Source of the DNA: Candidatus Dojkabacteria bacterium
GTDB lineage: Bacteria; Patescibacteriota; Dojkabacteria; J137
Reading direction: 5' to 3'
Length of the DNA stretch: 64,000 nt
Assembly (NCBI GenBank): GCA_030950485.1
Contig: JAUZRK010000001.1
Coordinates: 39,998-103,997 of the forward strand
Both the position numbers and the translations under genes were made by a program. How positions within the stretch are numbered: position 1 is the stretch's first letter; every line of letters begins with the position of its first letter. The notes below the pieces were generated by a model. That model saw nothing but the letters and a program-made list of their open reading frames with translations. It searched no databases and was not told where the DNA came from. Shown piece by piece: positions 9,626 to 33,841 of the stretch.

Positions 9626-11452
9626 TTATCTAGTAACCTGATAGCTCTGCACTCTTTCCAATAACTCTTTTGCTTCATTATTATTAGTAAAATGAGCCCT
9701 TACTGGCGTTAGCAATTTATTTAAATACTTAATTACTGCAAGTTTTAGATCAAGTGGGAATAATACACCTTTCCTAAATGATTCCTCTAGTTCTTGATAA
9801 GTATTGTATGAGACATCTCCTCCAAATTTATCTTCTCTTTCTACTTTAAATACTCCATCCTCTAATAGTGATTCTTGTAATTTAAGATGGTGTGCTTCAA
9901 AAATAATTTGTTTACAGTATCCAAGAATTGGATTATCAGATATTTCTTCAGGCGGACAATAAGCTGCCATTATCTTTCTTTTTACATCTTCTTCTGAATC
10001 AGTCATAAAGATAGCAGTATCAGGCTTTGACTTAGACATTTTTTGAGAAATCTTAGCTGCCTCTGGGTCTTCATGGTACCTAACTTCTATCTCTGGTAAA
10101 TTATCCTCTTTATTTCTACCTACAAACTTAAAATCTACACCAAATTTAGTAACCGAATCATTCTCAATCAAACTAATAAGTTCTAATCTTCCTTTCCCAA
10201 TAGAAGAAACATTAAACTGAATTCCCTCTTCATTGCCTTGACCAAATTCAATATGATACTGAGATGAACCTAGTCTTAATTCTTGCCTCCCTTCTTTTAG
10301 CTTTATTAGCTTAATACTCTTTTGCATTGGCTTTTGCAACCCTTGAAGCATTCCATGACTAACAACAACAGGCTTCCAGTAGCCTACACTTGGACCAACT
10401 TCTCTTGCAAGCATGTTAACTTTTCTCTGATCCATTCCAAGCTCTGTAACTTGACACTTCATGACATGAAAAATATCAGTAGTCTGCATACAAGGATAGA
10501 TAATTTGAGCTCCCGAAAGATCATCATCTTCAGATCTACCCATTATCTCTGTTGTTCTTAGAATTCGTTTTAGTGTTGCAGATTTAGAAACCTTCATAAC
10601 TATTTCCCAATACTTAGGATCTTTAATTACATCACTAGTCCAAATAAATTCAGTATTATCTAAATCCATCCCTGATGCTTTCCAGATTTCAATAAAATAT
10701 TTACCGACATCTTTTATTTTTTCAAGATCTCCTCCCATCTTATTGTTTAAATATCCAAACCAATCTGCAACATACATCCTAAATGTAAAGCCAGCCTTAA
10801 TCATTTTATTCGTGTTTATAGCTCTAATGATTCCCTGAGCAATATGCATTTGTCCAGAAGGCTCAAATCCATCATAAGTATATAGATCTTCGCCAGAGGT
10901 CAAAATTCCAGCTAATTGATCTTCACCTATAACTTCTCCTCCAGTTTCTTCAGATCCTACAGACATAATTAAGTCTATTCTCTCTTGTAATTTAGGTGTA
11001 ATCTCAATCTCTTGGTACTGATTAAAAGCTCCAATATAGAAACTTTCTTTAGTTGCATCTAATATACTTTTACCTATTGCATCATCAATACTCATTTCTA
11101 ATTCACTTCCTTCAATCACTCTAATCCTAGTATGATCTTCACTTGTACCTATTTCATCTTCAGCTAATATCATTCCTTCAGAATCAACTCCCCTTAATGG
11201 TCTCTTTTCTAATTTAATTTCTTTCCCTTCTTTAAATAAGAATCCAGGAACTACCTCGCCAACACCTAAAAATGGTACTAGATCACCTGGTTTAAAATTA
11301 GAAGCACCTGTAACAATCTGAAATTCTTTATCTCCATCAGTTATTTGAACAACTAGCAATCTATCTGCATTTTCATGCTTCTCTACTGATAAAACTTTTG
11401 CGATTTTTATTTTTTCTAAGAGTTCTGTAATTCTTTCTTTTCTAAATTTCAT
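9626..11452 (-). CDS. tyrS: Tyrosine--tRNA ligase, archaeal/eukaryotic type, with an N-terminal Trbp111/EMAP-like tRNA-binding domain
   Basis: Class I motifs FEPSGQMHIAQG (HIGH-like) and KMSKS. Core resembles eukaryotic/archaeal TyrRS (MYVADWFGYLNNK.., ..SGAQIIYPCMQTTDIFHVMKCQVTELGMDQRKVNMLARE). The first roughly 110 aa (KIKIAKVLSVEKHENADRLLVVQITDGDKEFQIVTGASNF) match the Trbp111/CsaA/MetRS-C tRNA-binding fold. Confidence 0.8.
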   Translation of the reverse strand: MKFRKERITELLEKIKIAKVLSVEKHENADRLLVVQITDGDKEFQIVTGASNFKPGDLVPFLGVGEVVPGFLFKEGKEIKLEKRPLRGVDSEGMILAEDEIGTSEDHTRIRVIEGSELEMSIDDAIGKSILDATKESFYIGAFNQYQEIEITPKLQERIDLIMSVGSEETGGEVIGEDQLAGILTSGEDLYTYDGFEPSGQMHIAQGIIRAINTNKMIKAGFTFRMYVADWFGYLNNKMGGDLEKIKDVGKYFIEIWKASGMDLDNTEFIWTSDVIKDPKYWEIVMKVSKSATLKRILRTTEIMGRSEDDDLSGAQIIYPCMQTTDIFHVMKCQVTELGMDQRKVNMLAREVGPSVGYWKPVVVSHGMLQGLQKPMQKSIKLIKLKEGRQELRLGSSQYHIEFGQGNEEGIQFNVSSIGKGRLELISLIENDSVTKFGVDFKFVGRNKEDNLPEIEVRYHEDPEAAKISQKMSKSKPDTAIFMTDSEEDVKRKIMAAYCPPEEISDNPILGYCKQIIFEAHHLKLQESLLEDGVFKVEREDKFGGDVSYNTYQELEESFRKGVLFPLDLKLAVIKYLNKLLTPVRAHFTNNNEAKELLERVQSYQVTR

Positions 11453-16373: not shown

Positions 16374-17432
16374 ATGAAAATTATTAAGTCTGATAGTAGT
16401 CAAACAATTAAAGAAGCTGTTAAAACCTTAAAAGCTGGTGGCATTTTAATATATCCTACCGAAACCTGTTATGGTGTTGGCGTAGATGCAACTAATATTG
16501 AAGCTGTAACAAATGTCTTAGAATATAAGAAACGTCCTGCTGGAAAACCAATATCAGTTGGTATATCTTCTCTAGAAATGGCAAAAGAATATGTTGAAAT
16601 AAATAAAAATGCGGAGAACATTTATAATGAGTTGCTACCCGGACCAATAACAGTTGTATCTAAATCACTAAAAAAAGTCGATGTTAGACTTGAGTCTGAA
16701 AATGGAAACTTAGGTATAAGATATTCTAGTAATAAATTGCTCCAGAAAATAATCAATGAGTTTGGAAAGCCAATAACAACAACATCTGCTAATACAAACG
16801 GTAAGAAAACACCCTACTCTGTTGATGATATTCTTAATAATATTAATGAAAAACAAAAAGAATTAATTGGTTTAATAATTGATTTTGGTGAATTACCAAA
16901 AAATAAGCCTTCAACGGTAATTGATACTACAACTGATAAACTTAAGACCTATAGGGGTGGTGACGTAAATATTAAAGAAGACTCTAGAAAAGTAACAACT
17001 AATAGCTACGAAGAAACAATTAAGCTTGGATCGGAGCTGATGTCAGAAAACATAAATTCACTTAAAGACACTGCTCTTCTATTTAAACTTAGCGGTGACT
17101 TAGGTGCTGGGAAAACCCACTTTGTTAAAGGTATAGCCAGAGCATTGGAAGTTGAGAAAAACATTAAGTCTCCTACTTATACCTATGTTTCAGAATATAA
17201 GCTTGAAAATAAAAATAAGTTATACCATCTAGATGCTTGGAGGCTTAAAAGTGCACTCGATGTAGAAGCATTAGAAATCGGATCCTGGTTTAAAAAAGGT
17301 AATGTTATTGCAATTGAGTGGCCTGGTGTATTGAAGCAATTAGAATTTGATTTCAAATCAAACAGTAAGATTATAGAAATTTTTATAACTGCGCCAACTA
17401 AAGAGAAAAGGAATTTCATAATCAATGACTAA
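16374..17432 (+). CDS. TsaC/YrdC (threonylcarbamoyl-AMP synthase) fused to TsaE/YjeE (t6A ATPase) - bifunctional t6A biosynthesis protein
   Basis: N-terminal YrdC fold (..GGILIYPTETCYGVGVDATN..KRPAGKPISV..). C-terminal TsaE (..LSGDLGAGKTHFVKGIARAL..SPTYTYVSEY..LYHLDAWRL..VIAIEWP). Confidence 0.75.
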   Translation: MKIIKSDSSQTIKEAVKTLKAGGILIYPTETCYGVGVDATNIEAVTNVLEYKKRPAGKPISVGISSLEMAKEYVEINKNAENIYNELLPGPITVVSKSLKKVDVRLESENGNLGIRYSSNKLLQKIINEFGKPITTTSANTNGKKTPYSVDDILNNINEKQKELIGLIIDFGELPKNKPSTVIDTTTDKLKTYRGGDVNIKEDSRKVTTNSYEETIKLGSELMSENINSLKDTALLFKLSGDLGAGKTHFVKGIARALEVEKNIKSPTYTYVSEYKLENKNKLYHLDAWRLKSALDVEALEIGSWFKKGNVIAIEWPGVLKQLEFDFKSNSKIIEIFITAPTKEKRNFIIND

Positions 17433-27401: not shown

Positions 27402-28910
27402 CTAAAACTCTATCTTCATTGCTTCCTTCATCTCATCCGCTATGCCTCTTGCTATCTTGCTTACTTTCTTACTGCCCTCTACAGCTTTTTCTACTAACTC
27501 AGCTTTCTTTCCTTCTGCCTCTCTTCTCTTTTCCCTAATCGGAGTTAAAACCTCGTTCATAGCAGCAAATAGTTTTTCTTTAACTTCAACGTCTCCAACT
27601 TTCCCAGCTTCGTATCTAGCTTTTAAGTCTGCTACTTCCTCTTTATTTGAATTAAACAAATCATGATAAGTAAATGCTACATTTCCTTCTACAGTGCCTT
27701 TATCAGTTGCATGAATTCTATTTGGATCTGTATAAACACTCATAATCTTTTTCTTCAGTTCTTCTTCTGAATCAGATAGATAAATTCCATTATTTAAGCT
27801 CTTTCCCATCTTTGCATTTCCATCAATACCTGGAACATTTTTAGGCACACCAAAATGTGCTTTTGGTTGTCCAAAAACCTCTTTTTTATACGTATTGTTG
27901 AATTTTCTAGCTATCTCCCTACAATCTTCTACCATTGGCGCCTGATCTTTACCAACAGGCACTAAATCTGCATTAACACAAAGAATGTCTGCAGCTTGAT
28001 GAGTTGGATAAATAAAGAAACCTAACGGAGTAGAATCTTCCATATTATTTTGTTTAATCTCAGTTTTCAATGTTGGGTTATGCATTAGTTGTTGAACTGA
28101 AACAAAATTCGAAAGATACATAAATATTTCATGTGTCTCTGGAACCTCACTTTGGATATAAACAGTTGATTTATCAAAATCTAATCCAGATGCATAGTAA
28201 TCACATAAAAGTTCTCCAATGCTTTGTTTTACTTTCTCAGGATTGTCTCGATTATCTGAAAGAGCATGAATATTTGCTATCAGAATAAAAGTCTCATATT
28301 CTTCCTGAAACTTCACTCGATTCATTAATGATCCGAATAAATGACCGATGTGTAATTTACCAGTTGGTCTATCTCCAGTAAGTATTCTTTTTTTTCTTGT
28401 ATCATTTAACACATTCTGTCTTCTTTCATTTGGAACCATTATGTCTACTCTCTCAAATATTGGAATTAGTTTTTCTAGATCAGTCCTTTTAATTTCTAAA
28501 GCTAATTCTGAGCTTGTGCTTCCACAAATGACTTTATTCATTTCAAAGAATGATTCATCGATAAGAATTTTATTAATTTTATTTTCTCCTTGTAGAAGAT
28601 CTAGAACCAAAGGTGATGCAAGTCCAGGTTCAAATCCTATAGATTTTAGCTCCTCATCAGATGCAAACGATACCCTGCTTGTTCCCAAATATTTTTTTAA
28701 TTTCTTAGAATCAATATTTTTATCATCTCTTCTTAGAATTCCAACATATTTATCTCCGCCATATCTAAATATTAAAGTTGATAAACCTTCTGAATATTTT
28801 ATCCCTAAAGATTTAACAATCTCGTCTATACTTAATGAACTAACCTTATGAAAGCTATGTTTAATATTTCTTTTTTCTAATAAATCTTTTATAAATTCAA
28901 AATGTTTCAT
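27402..28910 (-). CDS. trpS: Tryptophan--tRNA ligase with N-terminal YbaK/ProX-like aminoacyl-tRNA deacylase domain
   Basis: C-terminal TrpRS: ..TGDRPTGKLHIGHLFGSL.. (HIGH), ..VPVGKDQAPMVEDCREIARKFN.., ..KMGKS... N-terminal roughly 160 aa: ..STLIFRYGGDKYVGILRRDDKNIDSKKLKKYLGTSRVSFASDEELKSIGFEPGLASPLV.., a YbaK-like pattern. Confidence 0.8.
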   Translation of the reverse strand: MKHFEFIKDLLEKRNIKHSFHKVSSLSIDEIVKSLGIKYSEGLSTLIFRYGGDKYVGILRRDDKNIDSKKLKKYLGTSRVSFASDEELKSIGFEPGLASPLVLDLLQGENKINKILIDESFFEMNKVICGSTSSELALEIKRTDLEKLIPIFERVDIMVPNERRQNVLNDTRKKRILTGDRPTGKLHIGHLFGSLMNRVKFQEEYETFILIANIHALSDNRDNPEKVKQSIGELLCDYYASGLDFDKSTVYIQSEVPETHEIFMYLSNFVSVQQLMHNPTLKTEIKQNNMEDSTPLGFFIYPTHQAADILCVNADLVPVGKDQAPMVEDCREIARKFNNTYKKEVFGQPKAHFGVPKNVPGIDGNAKMGKSLNNGIYLSDSEEELKKKIMSVYTDPNRIHATDKGTVEGNVAFTYHDLFNSNKEEVADLKARYEAGKVGDVEVKEKLFAAMNEVLTPIREKRREAEGKKAELVEKAVEGSKKVSKIARGIADEMKEAMKIEF

Positions 28911-30915: not shown

Positions 30916-31617
30916 TCATATAAACTCCCTTTTTTTACTATTATATGTATTAACTACAGCACTTCCAACAACTGCAATATCAGCATGTTGTGATAACGCT
31001 TTAATATGTTCAGATTTGGAAATTCCATAACCTACAGCAATTTCAGTTTTAATATATTTTTTTACTCTATTAATATGACTAGATAATTCTGGGTCTAATT
31101 CACTTTTTTCACCAGTCGTTCCTTTTCTACTTGATAAATAAATTAAATCTTTTGCGTACTTTGCATTTTTCTTTATCCTCTCATCAGTACTTGTCGGAGC
31201 AAGAAGCCTAATTGGGTTAATATTATATTTCTGGCGTAATTCAATAAAATGTTCTTTATCTTCCATTTCAATTGAAATATCTGGAATTATTAATCCATAC
31301 GCACCAGCCTCAGACGAATCCTTAATAAATTTCTCGAGACTATAGGCGTTTAAAATATTGAAGTAAGTCATAAATATTAGCTTTGCTTTTACTTTAGAGC
31401 TCATTTCTTTCATTAGTTTAAAAGCATCTTCTACTCTTGTACCATTTTCAGGTGCAATTCTATTAGCTTCCATTATTGTCGGTTCGTCTCCTAATGGGTC
31501 AGAAAAAGGGATCTGAAGTTCGATATAGCTAACTCCAACTTCGTCCATAGCCTCAATTAATTTCCTTGATTCTTCTAAAGTTGGGTATCCAACTACAATG
31601 TGTGTCATTAGTTTCAT
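30916..31617 (-). CDS. trpA: Tryptophan synthase alpha subunit (N-terminally short; possibly decaying)
   Basis: ..YIELQIPFSDPLGDEPTIMEANRIA.. (TrpA active-site region) and C-terminal ..IAVGYGISKSEHIKAL..VVGSAVV... 233 aa, about 20 aa shorter at the N-terminus than typical TrpA. Its partner trpB is a pseudogene. Confidence 0.7.
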   Translation of the reverse strand: MKLMTHIVVGYPTLEESRKLIEAMDEVGVSYIELQIPFSDPLGDEPTIMEANRIAPENGTRVEDAFKLMKEMSSKVKAKLIFMTYFNILNAYSLEKFIKDSSEAGAYGLIIPDISIEMEDKEHFIELRQKYNINPIRLLAPTSTDERIKKNAKYAKDLIYLSSRKGTTGEKSELDPELSSHINRVKKYIKTEIAVGYGISKSEHIKALSQHADIAVVGSAVVNTYNSKKREFI

Positions 31618-32526: not shown

Positions 32527-33841
32527 TTAGAAAAATTCACTTTTACTTTTTACTTTTGCCTTCAAATAATCCCTAAACCCCTCATCCCCAAACTCCTCAG
32601 TCAGAATAAATAAGTCTTTATCTCCACGTCCAGATAAATTAATCACAATTACATCTTCCTTCTTAGTCTTAGGAACAAATTTAATTGCGTATGCGACAGC
32701 GTGCAATGATTCTAAAGTACCTATTATTCCTTCAGTTGCTGCTAATGTTTTAAAAGCTTCTTTTACTTTATTATCAGTAGCGTGTTCATACTTCACTCTA
32801 CCCTGCTCGTATAGCATTGCATGTTGAGGGCCGATACCTGCGTAATCTAGGCCTGCAGAAATACTGTGAGTAGGTTGAACTTGGCCGTCAGTATCCTGTA
32901 GAAAATATGATTTATAAACCTTCTACAACACCAATTTTTGGATCATTATTAAGTCTAGATGCATGATCACCTATTTCTTTAACTCCTTTCCCCCCTGCCT
33001 CAACTGCTATTAAATTAACTTCTTTATCATCTAGAAAAGTATTAAATATTCCGATTGAGTTACTTCCACCTCCAACACAAGCAATAATATAACTTGGTTT
33101 AGTTTCTCCATACTTTGTTATTTGCTCCTTAACTTCTAACCCTATAATAGATTGAAAACCTCTAACCATTGATGGATAGGGATGCGGTCCTAATGCAGAT
33201 CCTAGTAGATAATAGCTATCGTCGACATTTGCAATCCAATCTTGAATTGCAGCTGTAACCGCGTCTTTTAATCGTCTTGTTCCATGCTTTATCGGAACTA
33301 CTGTCGCTCCAAGGCTTTCCATCCAAAAAACATTCGGCCTTTGTCTTTTATAATCAACTTCTCCCATATAGACAATACATTCCATTCCAAATTTTGCCGC
33401 AACTGTTGCAGTTGCAAGTCCATGTTGACCAGCTCGGGTTTCGGCAATCAATCTTTTCTTCCCCATTCTTTTCGCCAGAAGGGCTTGACCTAAGCAGTGA
33501 TTAATTTTATGTGCTCCAGTATGGTTCAATCCTTCATTTTTTATATAAACTTTTCCTCCTCCTAATTTCTCAGTTAAGTTTTTAGCATAATATAAGGGTG
33601 TAGGTCTTCCTCAGTAATTTTTATATAAATCATTTAAAAATTCTGGATCATTTTTAGCAGCTATATAAGCATTTTCTAATTCTTCTAAAGCTGGTATTAA
33701 CATCTCAGGAACATACGCGCCACCATAATTACCAAAGAAGCCTTTATTATCTGAATCATATTGTGTCTTAATGAATACTTGCTTTACCATGTAGTTCGTC
33801 ATAATAAGTAAATTCTGGAGATAAAAGTTCATTAATCTCAT
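32527..33841 (-). pseudogene. trpB: Tryptophan synthase beta subunit, disrupted (in-frame TGA near 33593, frameshift near 32905-32915)
   Basis: Three fragments: 33611..33841 (..[14 protein letters not shown]..), 32912..33529 (..[41 protein letters not shown]..) and 32527..32817 (..NLSGRGDKD..). Reading through, ..[16 protein letters not shown].. shows a stop inside conserved sequence, and ..VVEGL*/..VYKSYFLQD.. needs a 1-nt shift. Confidence 0.8.

Follow-up and report, generated by a model that had tools for sequence, protein, structure and literature searches.

A 64,000-nucleotide stretch of a Candidatus Dojkabacteria genome (assembly GCA_030950485.1, contig JAUZRK010000001.1, positions 39,998 to 103,997; here called the window) carries a tsaC::tsaE gene whose product is a predicted bifunctional protein of N6-threonylcarbamoyladenosine (t6A37) biosynthesis, with a type-1 TsaC and the TsaE ATPase on one chain. 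This protein, TsaCE, probably delivers a tethered source of threonylcarbamoyl-AMP (TC-AMP) to the transferase TsaD. While the parts and the pathway are known, the joining of TsaC to TsaE is undescribed and is mechanistically informative.

The gene is one open reading frame (ORF; 16374..17432, plus strand, 352 amino acids) with neither a stop nor a frameshift between its halves, just as the initial annotation had proposed. All of the motifs quoted there were located: PTETCYGVG at residues 28–36, GDLGAGKTHF at 241–250, SPTY at 266–269, YHLDAWRL at 284–291 and IEWP at 314–317. An identical protein is encoded on a second, independent Ca. Dojkabacteria assembly (GCA_030949735.1), and the identical NCBI protein, from a Ca. 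Dojkabacteria metagenome-assembled genome (MAG), is named only 'L-threonylcarbamoyladenylate synthase'. Uninterrupted fusion ORFs of 334–415 amino acids were present in 46 fetched public loci, the set on which the locus counts, domain identities and motif counts below are based. An artefact of assembly, frameshifting or gene calling is, to all intents, ruled out by the continuous frame, the independent assembly, these 46 loci and the at least 133 sequence clusters described below.

Domain architecture of the fusion protein

A hidden Markov model (HMM) scan of the protein returned four models, all above cut-off. In Pfam these were PF01300 (Sua5_yciO_yrdC; residues 18–196, E=1.2e-44, 152 bits against a cut-off of 25.1, profile positions 2–178 of 178) and PF02367 (TsaE; residues 210–346, E=3.6e-29, 101.8 bits against 26.6, profile positions 2–126 of 128). 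In NCBIfam they were the equivalog models TIGR00057 (L-threonylcarbamoyladenylate synthase; 164 bits against 123.2) and TIGR00150 (TsaE; 89.5 bits against 60.1). The 352-residue protein gave no Pfam match to a SUA5 domain and none to the Kae1/TsaD-like domain PF00814. The TsaE domain makes up the C-terminal 40% of the chain, stand-alone TsaE proteins having about 150 residues.

Sequence matches in the PDB split at about residue 206. Those to TC-AMP synthases (TsaC2, Sua5 and YrdC) cover approximately residues 5–206 and those to TsaE (HI0065 and the Thermotoga maritima and Bacillus subtilis proteins) approximately 209–323; no solved chain among these matches spans both domains. An AlphaFold2 model based on 36 homologues had a predicted local distance difference test score (pLDDT) of 90.4 and a predicted template modelling (TM) score (pTM) of 0.74, confidence dropping only at the linker near residue 200. 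Its N-terminal half has the alpha/beta twisted open-sheet fold of YrdC and was matched by Foldseek to Escherichia coli YrdC (1hru; TM 0.82, root-mean-square deviation (rmsd) 2.8 Å). The C-terminal half was matched to TsaE HI0065 (1htw; TM 0.80, rmsd 2.2 Å) and also to 6n9a_E, the T. maritima TsaE chain from the TsaB2D2E2 complex. The domain identities and the t6A assignment made in the initial annotation were thus borne out by Pfam, NCBIfam, the PDB matches and Foldseek, and the C-terminal half is TsaE by Pfam, TIGR00150, PDB and Foldseek alike, not a member of another P-loop family. The features of the gene are collected in Table 1.

Table 1. Predicted features of the tsaC::tsaE gene (positions are those of the window)
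Feature	Position	Strand	Evidence and remarks
tsaC::tsaE fusion gene, complete	16374..17432	+	ATG to TAA, 352 aa + stop, one uninterrupted ORF
TsaC/YrdC TC-AMP synthase domain, aa 18–196	16425..16961	+	PF01300, TIGR00057, Foldseek to 1hru
KxR half of TsaC catalytic tetrad, K52-K53-R54	16527..16535	+	alignment A1; motif definition PMC9654439
SxN half of TsaC catalytic tetrad, S138-A139-N140	16785..16793	+	alignment A1; pattern in 45/46 loci
Inter-domain linker, aa 197–209	16962..17000	+	short, poorly conserved; pLDDT about 67
TsaE P-loop ATPase domain, aa 210–346	17001..17411	+	PF02367, TIGR00150, Foldseek to 1htw
Walker A / P-loop, G241-D-L-G-A-G-K-T248	17094..17117	+	G244, G246, K247 and T248 invariant in A1
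Switch I loop, S266-P-T-Y-T270	17169..17183	+	S266 and P267 invariant in A1; motif in 46/46 loci
Switch II, H285-L-D-A-W289-R290	17226..17243	+	H285, D287 and W289 invariant in A1
E315-W316 of the TsaE (I/V)EW motif	17316..17321	+	invariant in A1; present in 44/46 loci

Conservation and the Switch II variant

Mean pairwise identity among the 46 loci was 52% for the TsaC domain, 37% for the TsaE domain and 19% for the linker, the median length of which was 13 residues. In alignment A1, K52 and A139 are invariant, with R54, S138 and N140 each conserved at 90% or more, and among homologues only 45–57% identical little or no variation is seen in the KxR...SxN, Walker A, SPT(Y)T, HxDx(W)R and EW motifs. 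The conservation of these motifs, and of both domains across the 46 loci, therefore points to purifying selection on both halves of the protein.

The Switch II motif HxDxYR appears here as HxDxWR, the arginine being kept and the tyrosine replaced by tryptophan (W289). This tryptophan is found in 38 of the 46 fusions, those of the Dojkabacteria/Microgenomates clade, whereas all 44 stand-alone TsaE proteins compared have tyrosine. Exactly eight fusions, of archaeal, planctomycete and Kerfeldbacteria origin, retain the tyrosine. The TsaE domain also contains a hypervariable insertion point between the strands that follow Switch I and lead into Switch II, respectively (A1 columns ~334–371; window residues ~277 to 281, nucleotides ~17202–17216), at which from 0 to about 40 extra residues are present (e.g. 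P0009, P0015 and P0042).

Distribution of the fusion

Searched exhaustively with HMMER, a set of 1.84 billion representatives at 50% identity yielded 236 clusters at E≤1e-30 and 37,031 at E≤1e-3, the latter set pooling the wider TsaC/Sua5/YciO/HypF and TsaE families. Both domains, always with TsaC preceding TsaE, were present in 133 of the best 150 representatives, which gives at least 133 clusters at 50% identity, and each of the 120 best homologues (46–100% identity, 349–396 residues) carries both Pfam domains. The architecture is kept through divergence to about 31–35% identity. With 236 clusters against 37,031, the fusion is therefore a small minority globally, yet a large and old family. 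The initial description of it as an uncommon architecture accordingly holds on the global scale and fails within Dojkabacteria and Microgenomates, where it is the usual form. By these comparisons the fusion is an old trait, shared lineage-wide by Dojkabacteria, Microgenomates and some other bacteria of the Candidate Phyla Radiation (CPR).

Full-length fusions were found in Dojkabacteria (WS6), in Microgenomates (Levy-, Roizman-, Beckwith-, Shapiro- and Woesebacteria), in Kerfeldbacteria and in one MAG of the Parcubacteria group. Outside the CPR they occur in Planctomycetota, for instance in Ca. Uabimicrobium amorphum, the complete genome of which has 9.5 Mb (L017:10001-11074, NZ_AP019860.1), and at two further loci (L048:10001-11074 and L027:10001-11077), and on contigs labelled Aenigmarchaeota and Micrarchaeota, of the DPANN archaea.

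TsaE has been described as having no archaeal homologues. The tsaCE gene is accompanied by tsaD on contigs of Ca. Aenigmarchaeota (L026:10001-12150, PFTQ01000027.1) and Ca. Micrarchaeota (L033:9992-12202, CAZERP010000019.1), and on two further DPANN contigs (L018:9941-12542 and L028:6212-8406) the archaeal status of which is by label alone. The Aenigmarchaeota contig also encodes eIF2-alpha, PAC2 and an archaeal-type Toprim protein, and that of Micrarchaeota encodes ribosomal protein S6e, deoxyhypusine synthase, tRNA-intron endonuclease and an aIF5B-like factor. Mislabelled CPR bins were rejected as the source of these two loci, given the archaeal marker genes on the same contigs. The TsaD protein beside the archaeal fusions is of the bacterial type, scoring 377–381 bits against TIGR03723 (cut-off 296) and failing arch_KAE1 at 164–179 bits (cut-off 375), a model against which a true DPANN Kae1 scores 458.

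In a neighbour-joining tree, calculated without support values, the fusions of archaea and planctomycetes fall within the CPR sequences. Together with their shared Switch II tyrosine and the bacterial-type TsaD, this position suggests that the module has spread horizontally. The DPANN copies probably represent a transfer of a core translation-related module from CPR to DPANN, the direction of which is not fixed by the tree.

The public database records for these proteins have both Pfam domains precomputed, yet the names refer to the TC-AMP synthase only. As the proteins are called simply 'threonylcarbamoyl-AMP synthase', the TsaE half goes unnoticed in these genomes, and it may be wrongly counted as absent when the pathway is reconstructed for CPR and DPANN organisms.

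Genomic context

The window has a GC content of 31.6%, and no RNA genes were detected in it. The fusion gene is flanked there by genes for a type-2 isopentenyl diphosphate isomerase-like flavin mononucleotide enzyme and a protein of unknown family, with gaps of 101 and 59 nt, and a promoter and terminator scan around it gave nothing above the shuffled background. Across the 46 loci tsaD is the sole strongly recurrent neighbour (34 loci), the next being genes for thioredoxin (11) and histidine-triad nucleotide hydrolases of the HIT family (8). In 22 loci tsaD starts no more than 150 nt downstream on the same strand, overlapping the fusion stop codon in 17, and in 11 more it lies further downstream on the same strand (33 of 46 downstream in all). 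Long WS6/Dojkabacteria contigs show a conserved block, def-ymdB-HU-tsaCE-tsaD-serS. No second TsaC or TsaE was seen in any of the 46 fusion loci.

Searches for tsaD in the 64-kb window with tblastn, phmmer, HMMs and six-frame translation, using E. coli and CPR probes, were negative; the window could be extended by about 1.7 kb on one side through exact-protein matches. None of the best 120 TsaD matches to a Dojkabacteria TsaD query came from contigs of the window's subclade, and the planctomycete fusions have no tsaD within 10 kb. Since tsaD is not adjacent to the fusion in this genome, TsaCE must act with a TsaD encoded elsewhere. The window's subclade (L001, L002 and L006–L010) also lacks the synteny of the def to serS block seen in its sister WS6 clades (L003, L016 and L086–L088).

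A small gene is often located beside the fusion or between the fusion and tsaD (L011:6561-6953 on the minus strand, L018:11051-11443 and L028:5716-6195), and those of L011 and L028 are HIT-like by sequence. HIT enzymes hydrolyse acyl-adenylates, and it is conceivable that a HIT gene near the fusion is linked with stray TC-AMP.

TsaB and mini-TsaB

A six-frame search of the 64-kb window, and of the fusion's surroundings out to 10 kb in about 50 loci (1.35 Mb), detected neither TsaB nor a shortened form of it, described below as mini-TsaB. The search employed three HMMs, one derived from TsaD, one based on 72 TsaB sequences and one for mini-TsaB; of the canonical TsaB proteins used as positive controls, 76 of 80 and 80 of 80 were recovered. 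The weak TsaB-like candidates of the first HMM pass proved to be adenylate kinase, KsgA, HAD, DsbA and similar proteins. In a sample of ordinary AT-rich bacteria, tsaE lies directly upstream of 39 of 66 tsaB genes; the consistent lack of a nearby TsaB at the fusion loci is therefore notable. It is no proof of genome-wide absence, because tsaB lies apart from tsaE and tsaD in many phyla (SyntTax paper).

A metagenome scan with an AT-biased TsaB motif matched mostly ordinary tsaE-tsaB-tsaD operons with no CPR affinity. One of the matches (L103:1406-1723, minus strand) led to the mini-TsaB family, with 793 matches of 103–115 residues, which passes TIGR03725 while spanning only positions 1–88 of 212 and so consists of the N-terminal subdomain of TsaB only. 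UGA recoding was rejected as the cause of the short L103 protein, the stop codon being TAA. In a small-genome groundwater lineage the genes abut, without fusion, in a tsaE-tsaC-miniTsaB operon (L210:8852-10321 and L211:8990-10321), and no tsaD was found within 10 kb of it. Independently of the fusion, this operon provides a second genetic link of tsaE with tsaC. The mini-TsaB lineage plausibly belongs to the CPR, and a half-size dimerisation subunit of this kind appears not to have been described before.

Proposed mechanism and alternative explanations

In the T. maritima TsaBDE structures TsaE lies at the opening of the TsaD active site, with its SPT(F/Y)T loop inserted into that site (PMC6009658); TsaE and tRNA occupy the same TsaD cavity, and access for TC-AMP is kept in the TsaE-bound state. 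Missoury et al. (2018) proposed that TsaE 'prepares' TsaD for TsaC and that, once TC-AMP has been handed over, ATP hydrolysis ejects TsaE and tRNA binds. In the bacteria studied, TsaE docks on the TsaD transferase and drives an ATP-dependent reset. Its ATP hydrolysis is needed only for multi-turnover, with Tyr82 and Arg83 of Switch II acting in signalling; the role of TsaC in the reset was left open (Luthra et al., PMC6614819). E. coli TsaC pulls down both TsaB and TsaD.

By analogy with these systems, a covalent TsaC-TsaE would fit the Missoury scheme. In the fusion the domain that makes the labile TC-AMP would be tied to the one that docks on TsaD at the mouth of its active site, and each cycle of TsaE docking and ATP hydrolysis would also bring TsaC to TsaD for TC-AMP loading. 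TsaE would then depart and tRNA would enter the same cavity. The cycle in which TsaE prepares TsaD for TsaC would in this manner be hard-wired in one polypeptide, with the TsaC:TsaE ratio set at 1:1. The tight coupling of both steps suggested in the initial annotation finds indirect support in the tsaCE-tsaD arrangement, the unfused tsaE-tsaC-miniTsaB operon and this published proposal.

Several points weigh against tethered delivery. No tsaD lies within 10 kb of the fusion in L001, L002 and L006–L010, and because the window and its closest relatives share this lack, operon coupling is not universal. At the position of the functionally important Switch II tyrosine, the counterpart of T. maritima Tyr82 in the loop that mediates the reset driven by TsaE, the fusion has a tryptophan, which may be the mark of an interface that has co-evolved or of a changed reset. 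In TobZ the YrdC-like module sits on the face of the Kae1-like (TsaD-like) module opposite to the TsaE site; on this analogy, a linker of about 13 residues may not permit channelling in the manner of TobZ to the same TsaD protomer, so the geometry of the hand-off must differ or use a second protomer.

The fusion could, finally, be a neutral merger of the genes of pathway partners, fusions of which are common. Loss of a stop codon between adjacent genes in a streamlined ancestor would have given co-expression and fixed stoichiometry without any kinetic or channelling role. The short, variable and poorly conserved linker (19% identity) would agree with this, fusions among t6A genes are frequent (yeaZ::rimI::ygjD, alr::yjeE, Kae1-Bud32), and the occurrence of tsaE and tsaC as adjacent, unfused genes in another lineage makes a merger easy to imagine. 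The fused order, C-E, is however the reverse of the unfused order, E-C, so simple read-through of that arrangement does not account for the fusion. The persistence of the fusion to about 31–35% identity in at least 133 clusters, with no reversal of order among the best 150 representatives, its horizontal spread as an intact module, and a pTM of 0.74, suggestive of defined inter-domain packing in the AlphaFold2 model, also argue against neutrality, which we regard as rather unlikely. Repurposing of one half, as a YciO-like N-terminal domain or a degenerate TsaE without ATPase activity, is very improbable. YciO (1k7j) is also a good Foldseek match for the N-terminal domain and the Switch II tyrosine has been replaced, but both equivalog models score above cut-off, the KxR...SxN tetrad, Walker A, Switch I and EW motifs are intact and conserved, tsaD is tightly linked in relatives, and the fusion loci hold no other TsaC or TsaE.

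A different role for the fusion would be in a minimal system independent of TsaB, consisting of TsaCE and TsaD (perhaps as a Qri7-like TsaD homodimer), in which the TsaC domain replaces the contacts of TsaB with TsaE. The failure of sensitive searches to find TsaB or mini-TsaB in the window or near the fusion is in keeping with this, as are the upstream tsaE of so many ordinary AT-rich tsaB genes, the singular recurrence of tsaD beside the fusion, and the presence of the tsaCE-tsaD pair as a unit on bona fide archaeal contigs, TsaB not being known in archaea (Thiaville 2014). Against it, the TsaB scan covered neighbourhoods only and tsaB is unlinked in many phyla; in the systems studied TsaE binds the asymmetric TsaB-TsaD heterodimer only and not TsaD homodimers (Missoury et al. 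2018); the fusion occurs in a 9.5-Mb planctomycete, where genome reduction is no issue; and at least one other small-genome lineage, plausibly CPR, keeps a recognisable mini-TsaB. Such a system is possible, if on the doubtful side, and it is not established that the fusion makes up for the lack of TsaB in reduced genomes, as initially suggested. A bolder version would make tsaCE plus tsaD a self-sufficient, mobile, TsaB-independent module of CPR origin, in which the tethered TsaC substitutes for TsaB in positioning TsaE on TsaD, and which moved intact into DPANN archaea, supplementing or replacing KEOPS, with tsaCE alone passing into planctomycetes; this is speculative and the odds are against it. 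Were TsaB indeed missing, an essential and universal pathway would have a new minimal form, and this would be a case of CPR-to-DPANN transfer of core translation machinery; a TsaB-independent module would be a third t6A architecture beside TsaBDE and KEOPS/Qri7. Tethered delivery of the TC-AMP source to TsaD by a bifunctional TsaCE is the reading that we consider likely.

Comparison with known systems

In full-text literature searches no description of a TsaC-TsaE fusion came to light, nor any paper in which TsaE appears together with CPR or DPANN terms. Compared with the TsaBCDE system (YrdC and YjeE in E. coli, TsaC2 and TsaE in T. maritima), the families, motifs and folds are the same and tsaD is associated in relatives. 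The fusion differs in being one chain, TsaC then TsaE, with a linker of approximately 13 residues, in the Switch II tryptophan of the Dojkabacteria/Microgenomates clade, and in having no tsaB nearby, the classical operons being tsaE-tsaB-(rimI)-tsaD. Sua5/TsaC2 likewise possesses a YrdC-type domain, a linker and a second alpha/beta domain of similar size, and it came first in the whole-chain Foldseek ranking. The whole-chain rmsd is however 11–12 Å and the C-terminal domain is here TsaE (PF02367) and not SUA5, so that the likeness is positional only.

In TobZ, HypF and the Pandoravirus TsaN a YrdC module is likewise fused to another component of (threonyl)carbamoyl transfer, which is thought to protect or channel the labile adenylate. 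Those proteins join the synthase to a transferase, whereas TsaCE joins it to a regulatory ATPase, the transferase being a separate and often overlapping gene. The archaeal Kae1-Bud32 fusion (PRPK, e.g. MJ1130 and HVO_1895) is also a t6A fusion with a regulatory subunit of ATPase/kinase type, and has been read as functional linkage. Its partners (transferase and Bud32) and its system (KEOPS) differ, and TsaE is unrelated to Bud32. Rosetta-stone evidence has similarly come from the t6A domain fusions yeaZ::rimI::ygjD, alr::yjeE, hydrolase::yeaZ and the TsaC/HemK protein of Mycoplasma genitalium, none of which joins TsaC to TsaE and which stem from Gram-positive lineages or Mycoplasma, not from CPR, DPANN or Planctomycetota.

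The fusion bears on two questions of mechanism, namely how TC-AMP passes from TsaC to TsaD and what purpose is served by ATP hydrolysis by TsaE. Being ancient and widespread, it constitutes Rosetta-stone evidence for the hypothesis of Missoury et al. (2018) that delivery of TC-AMP and the TsaE-bound state are parts of one step. A single-chain reagent for probing that idea is thus at hand, for which the complete RefSeq genome of Ca. Uabimicrobium amorphum is a defined gene source.

Other features of the window

Two class-Ib (Trp/Tyr-type) aminoacyl-tRNA synthetases with appended N-terminal domains are encoded on the minus strand (27402-28910 and 9626-11452). One of them carries a YbaK-type tRNA_edit domain (PF04073 with PF00579), an arrangement also present in the relative L002, and the other a tRNA_bind domain (PF01588 with PF00579). 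An editing domain on a class-Ib synthetase is seemingly unusual. The trpB gene (~32527-33841, minus strand), located beside a trpA-like gene (30916-31617, minus strand), seems to be fragmented: a 205-residue ORF matches positions 31–193 of 295 of the PALP profile, and the short TrpB-like ORFs flanking it have no Pfam match. The fragmented trpB may be a pseudogene or the result of a sequencing frameshift.

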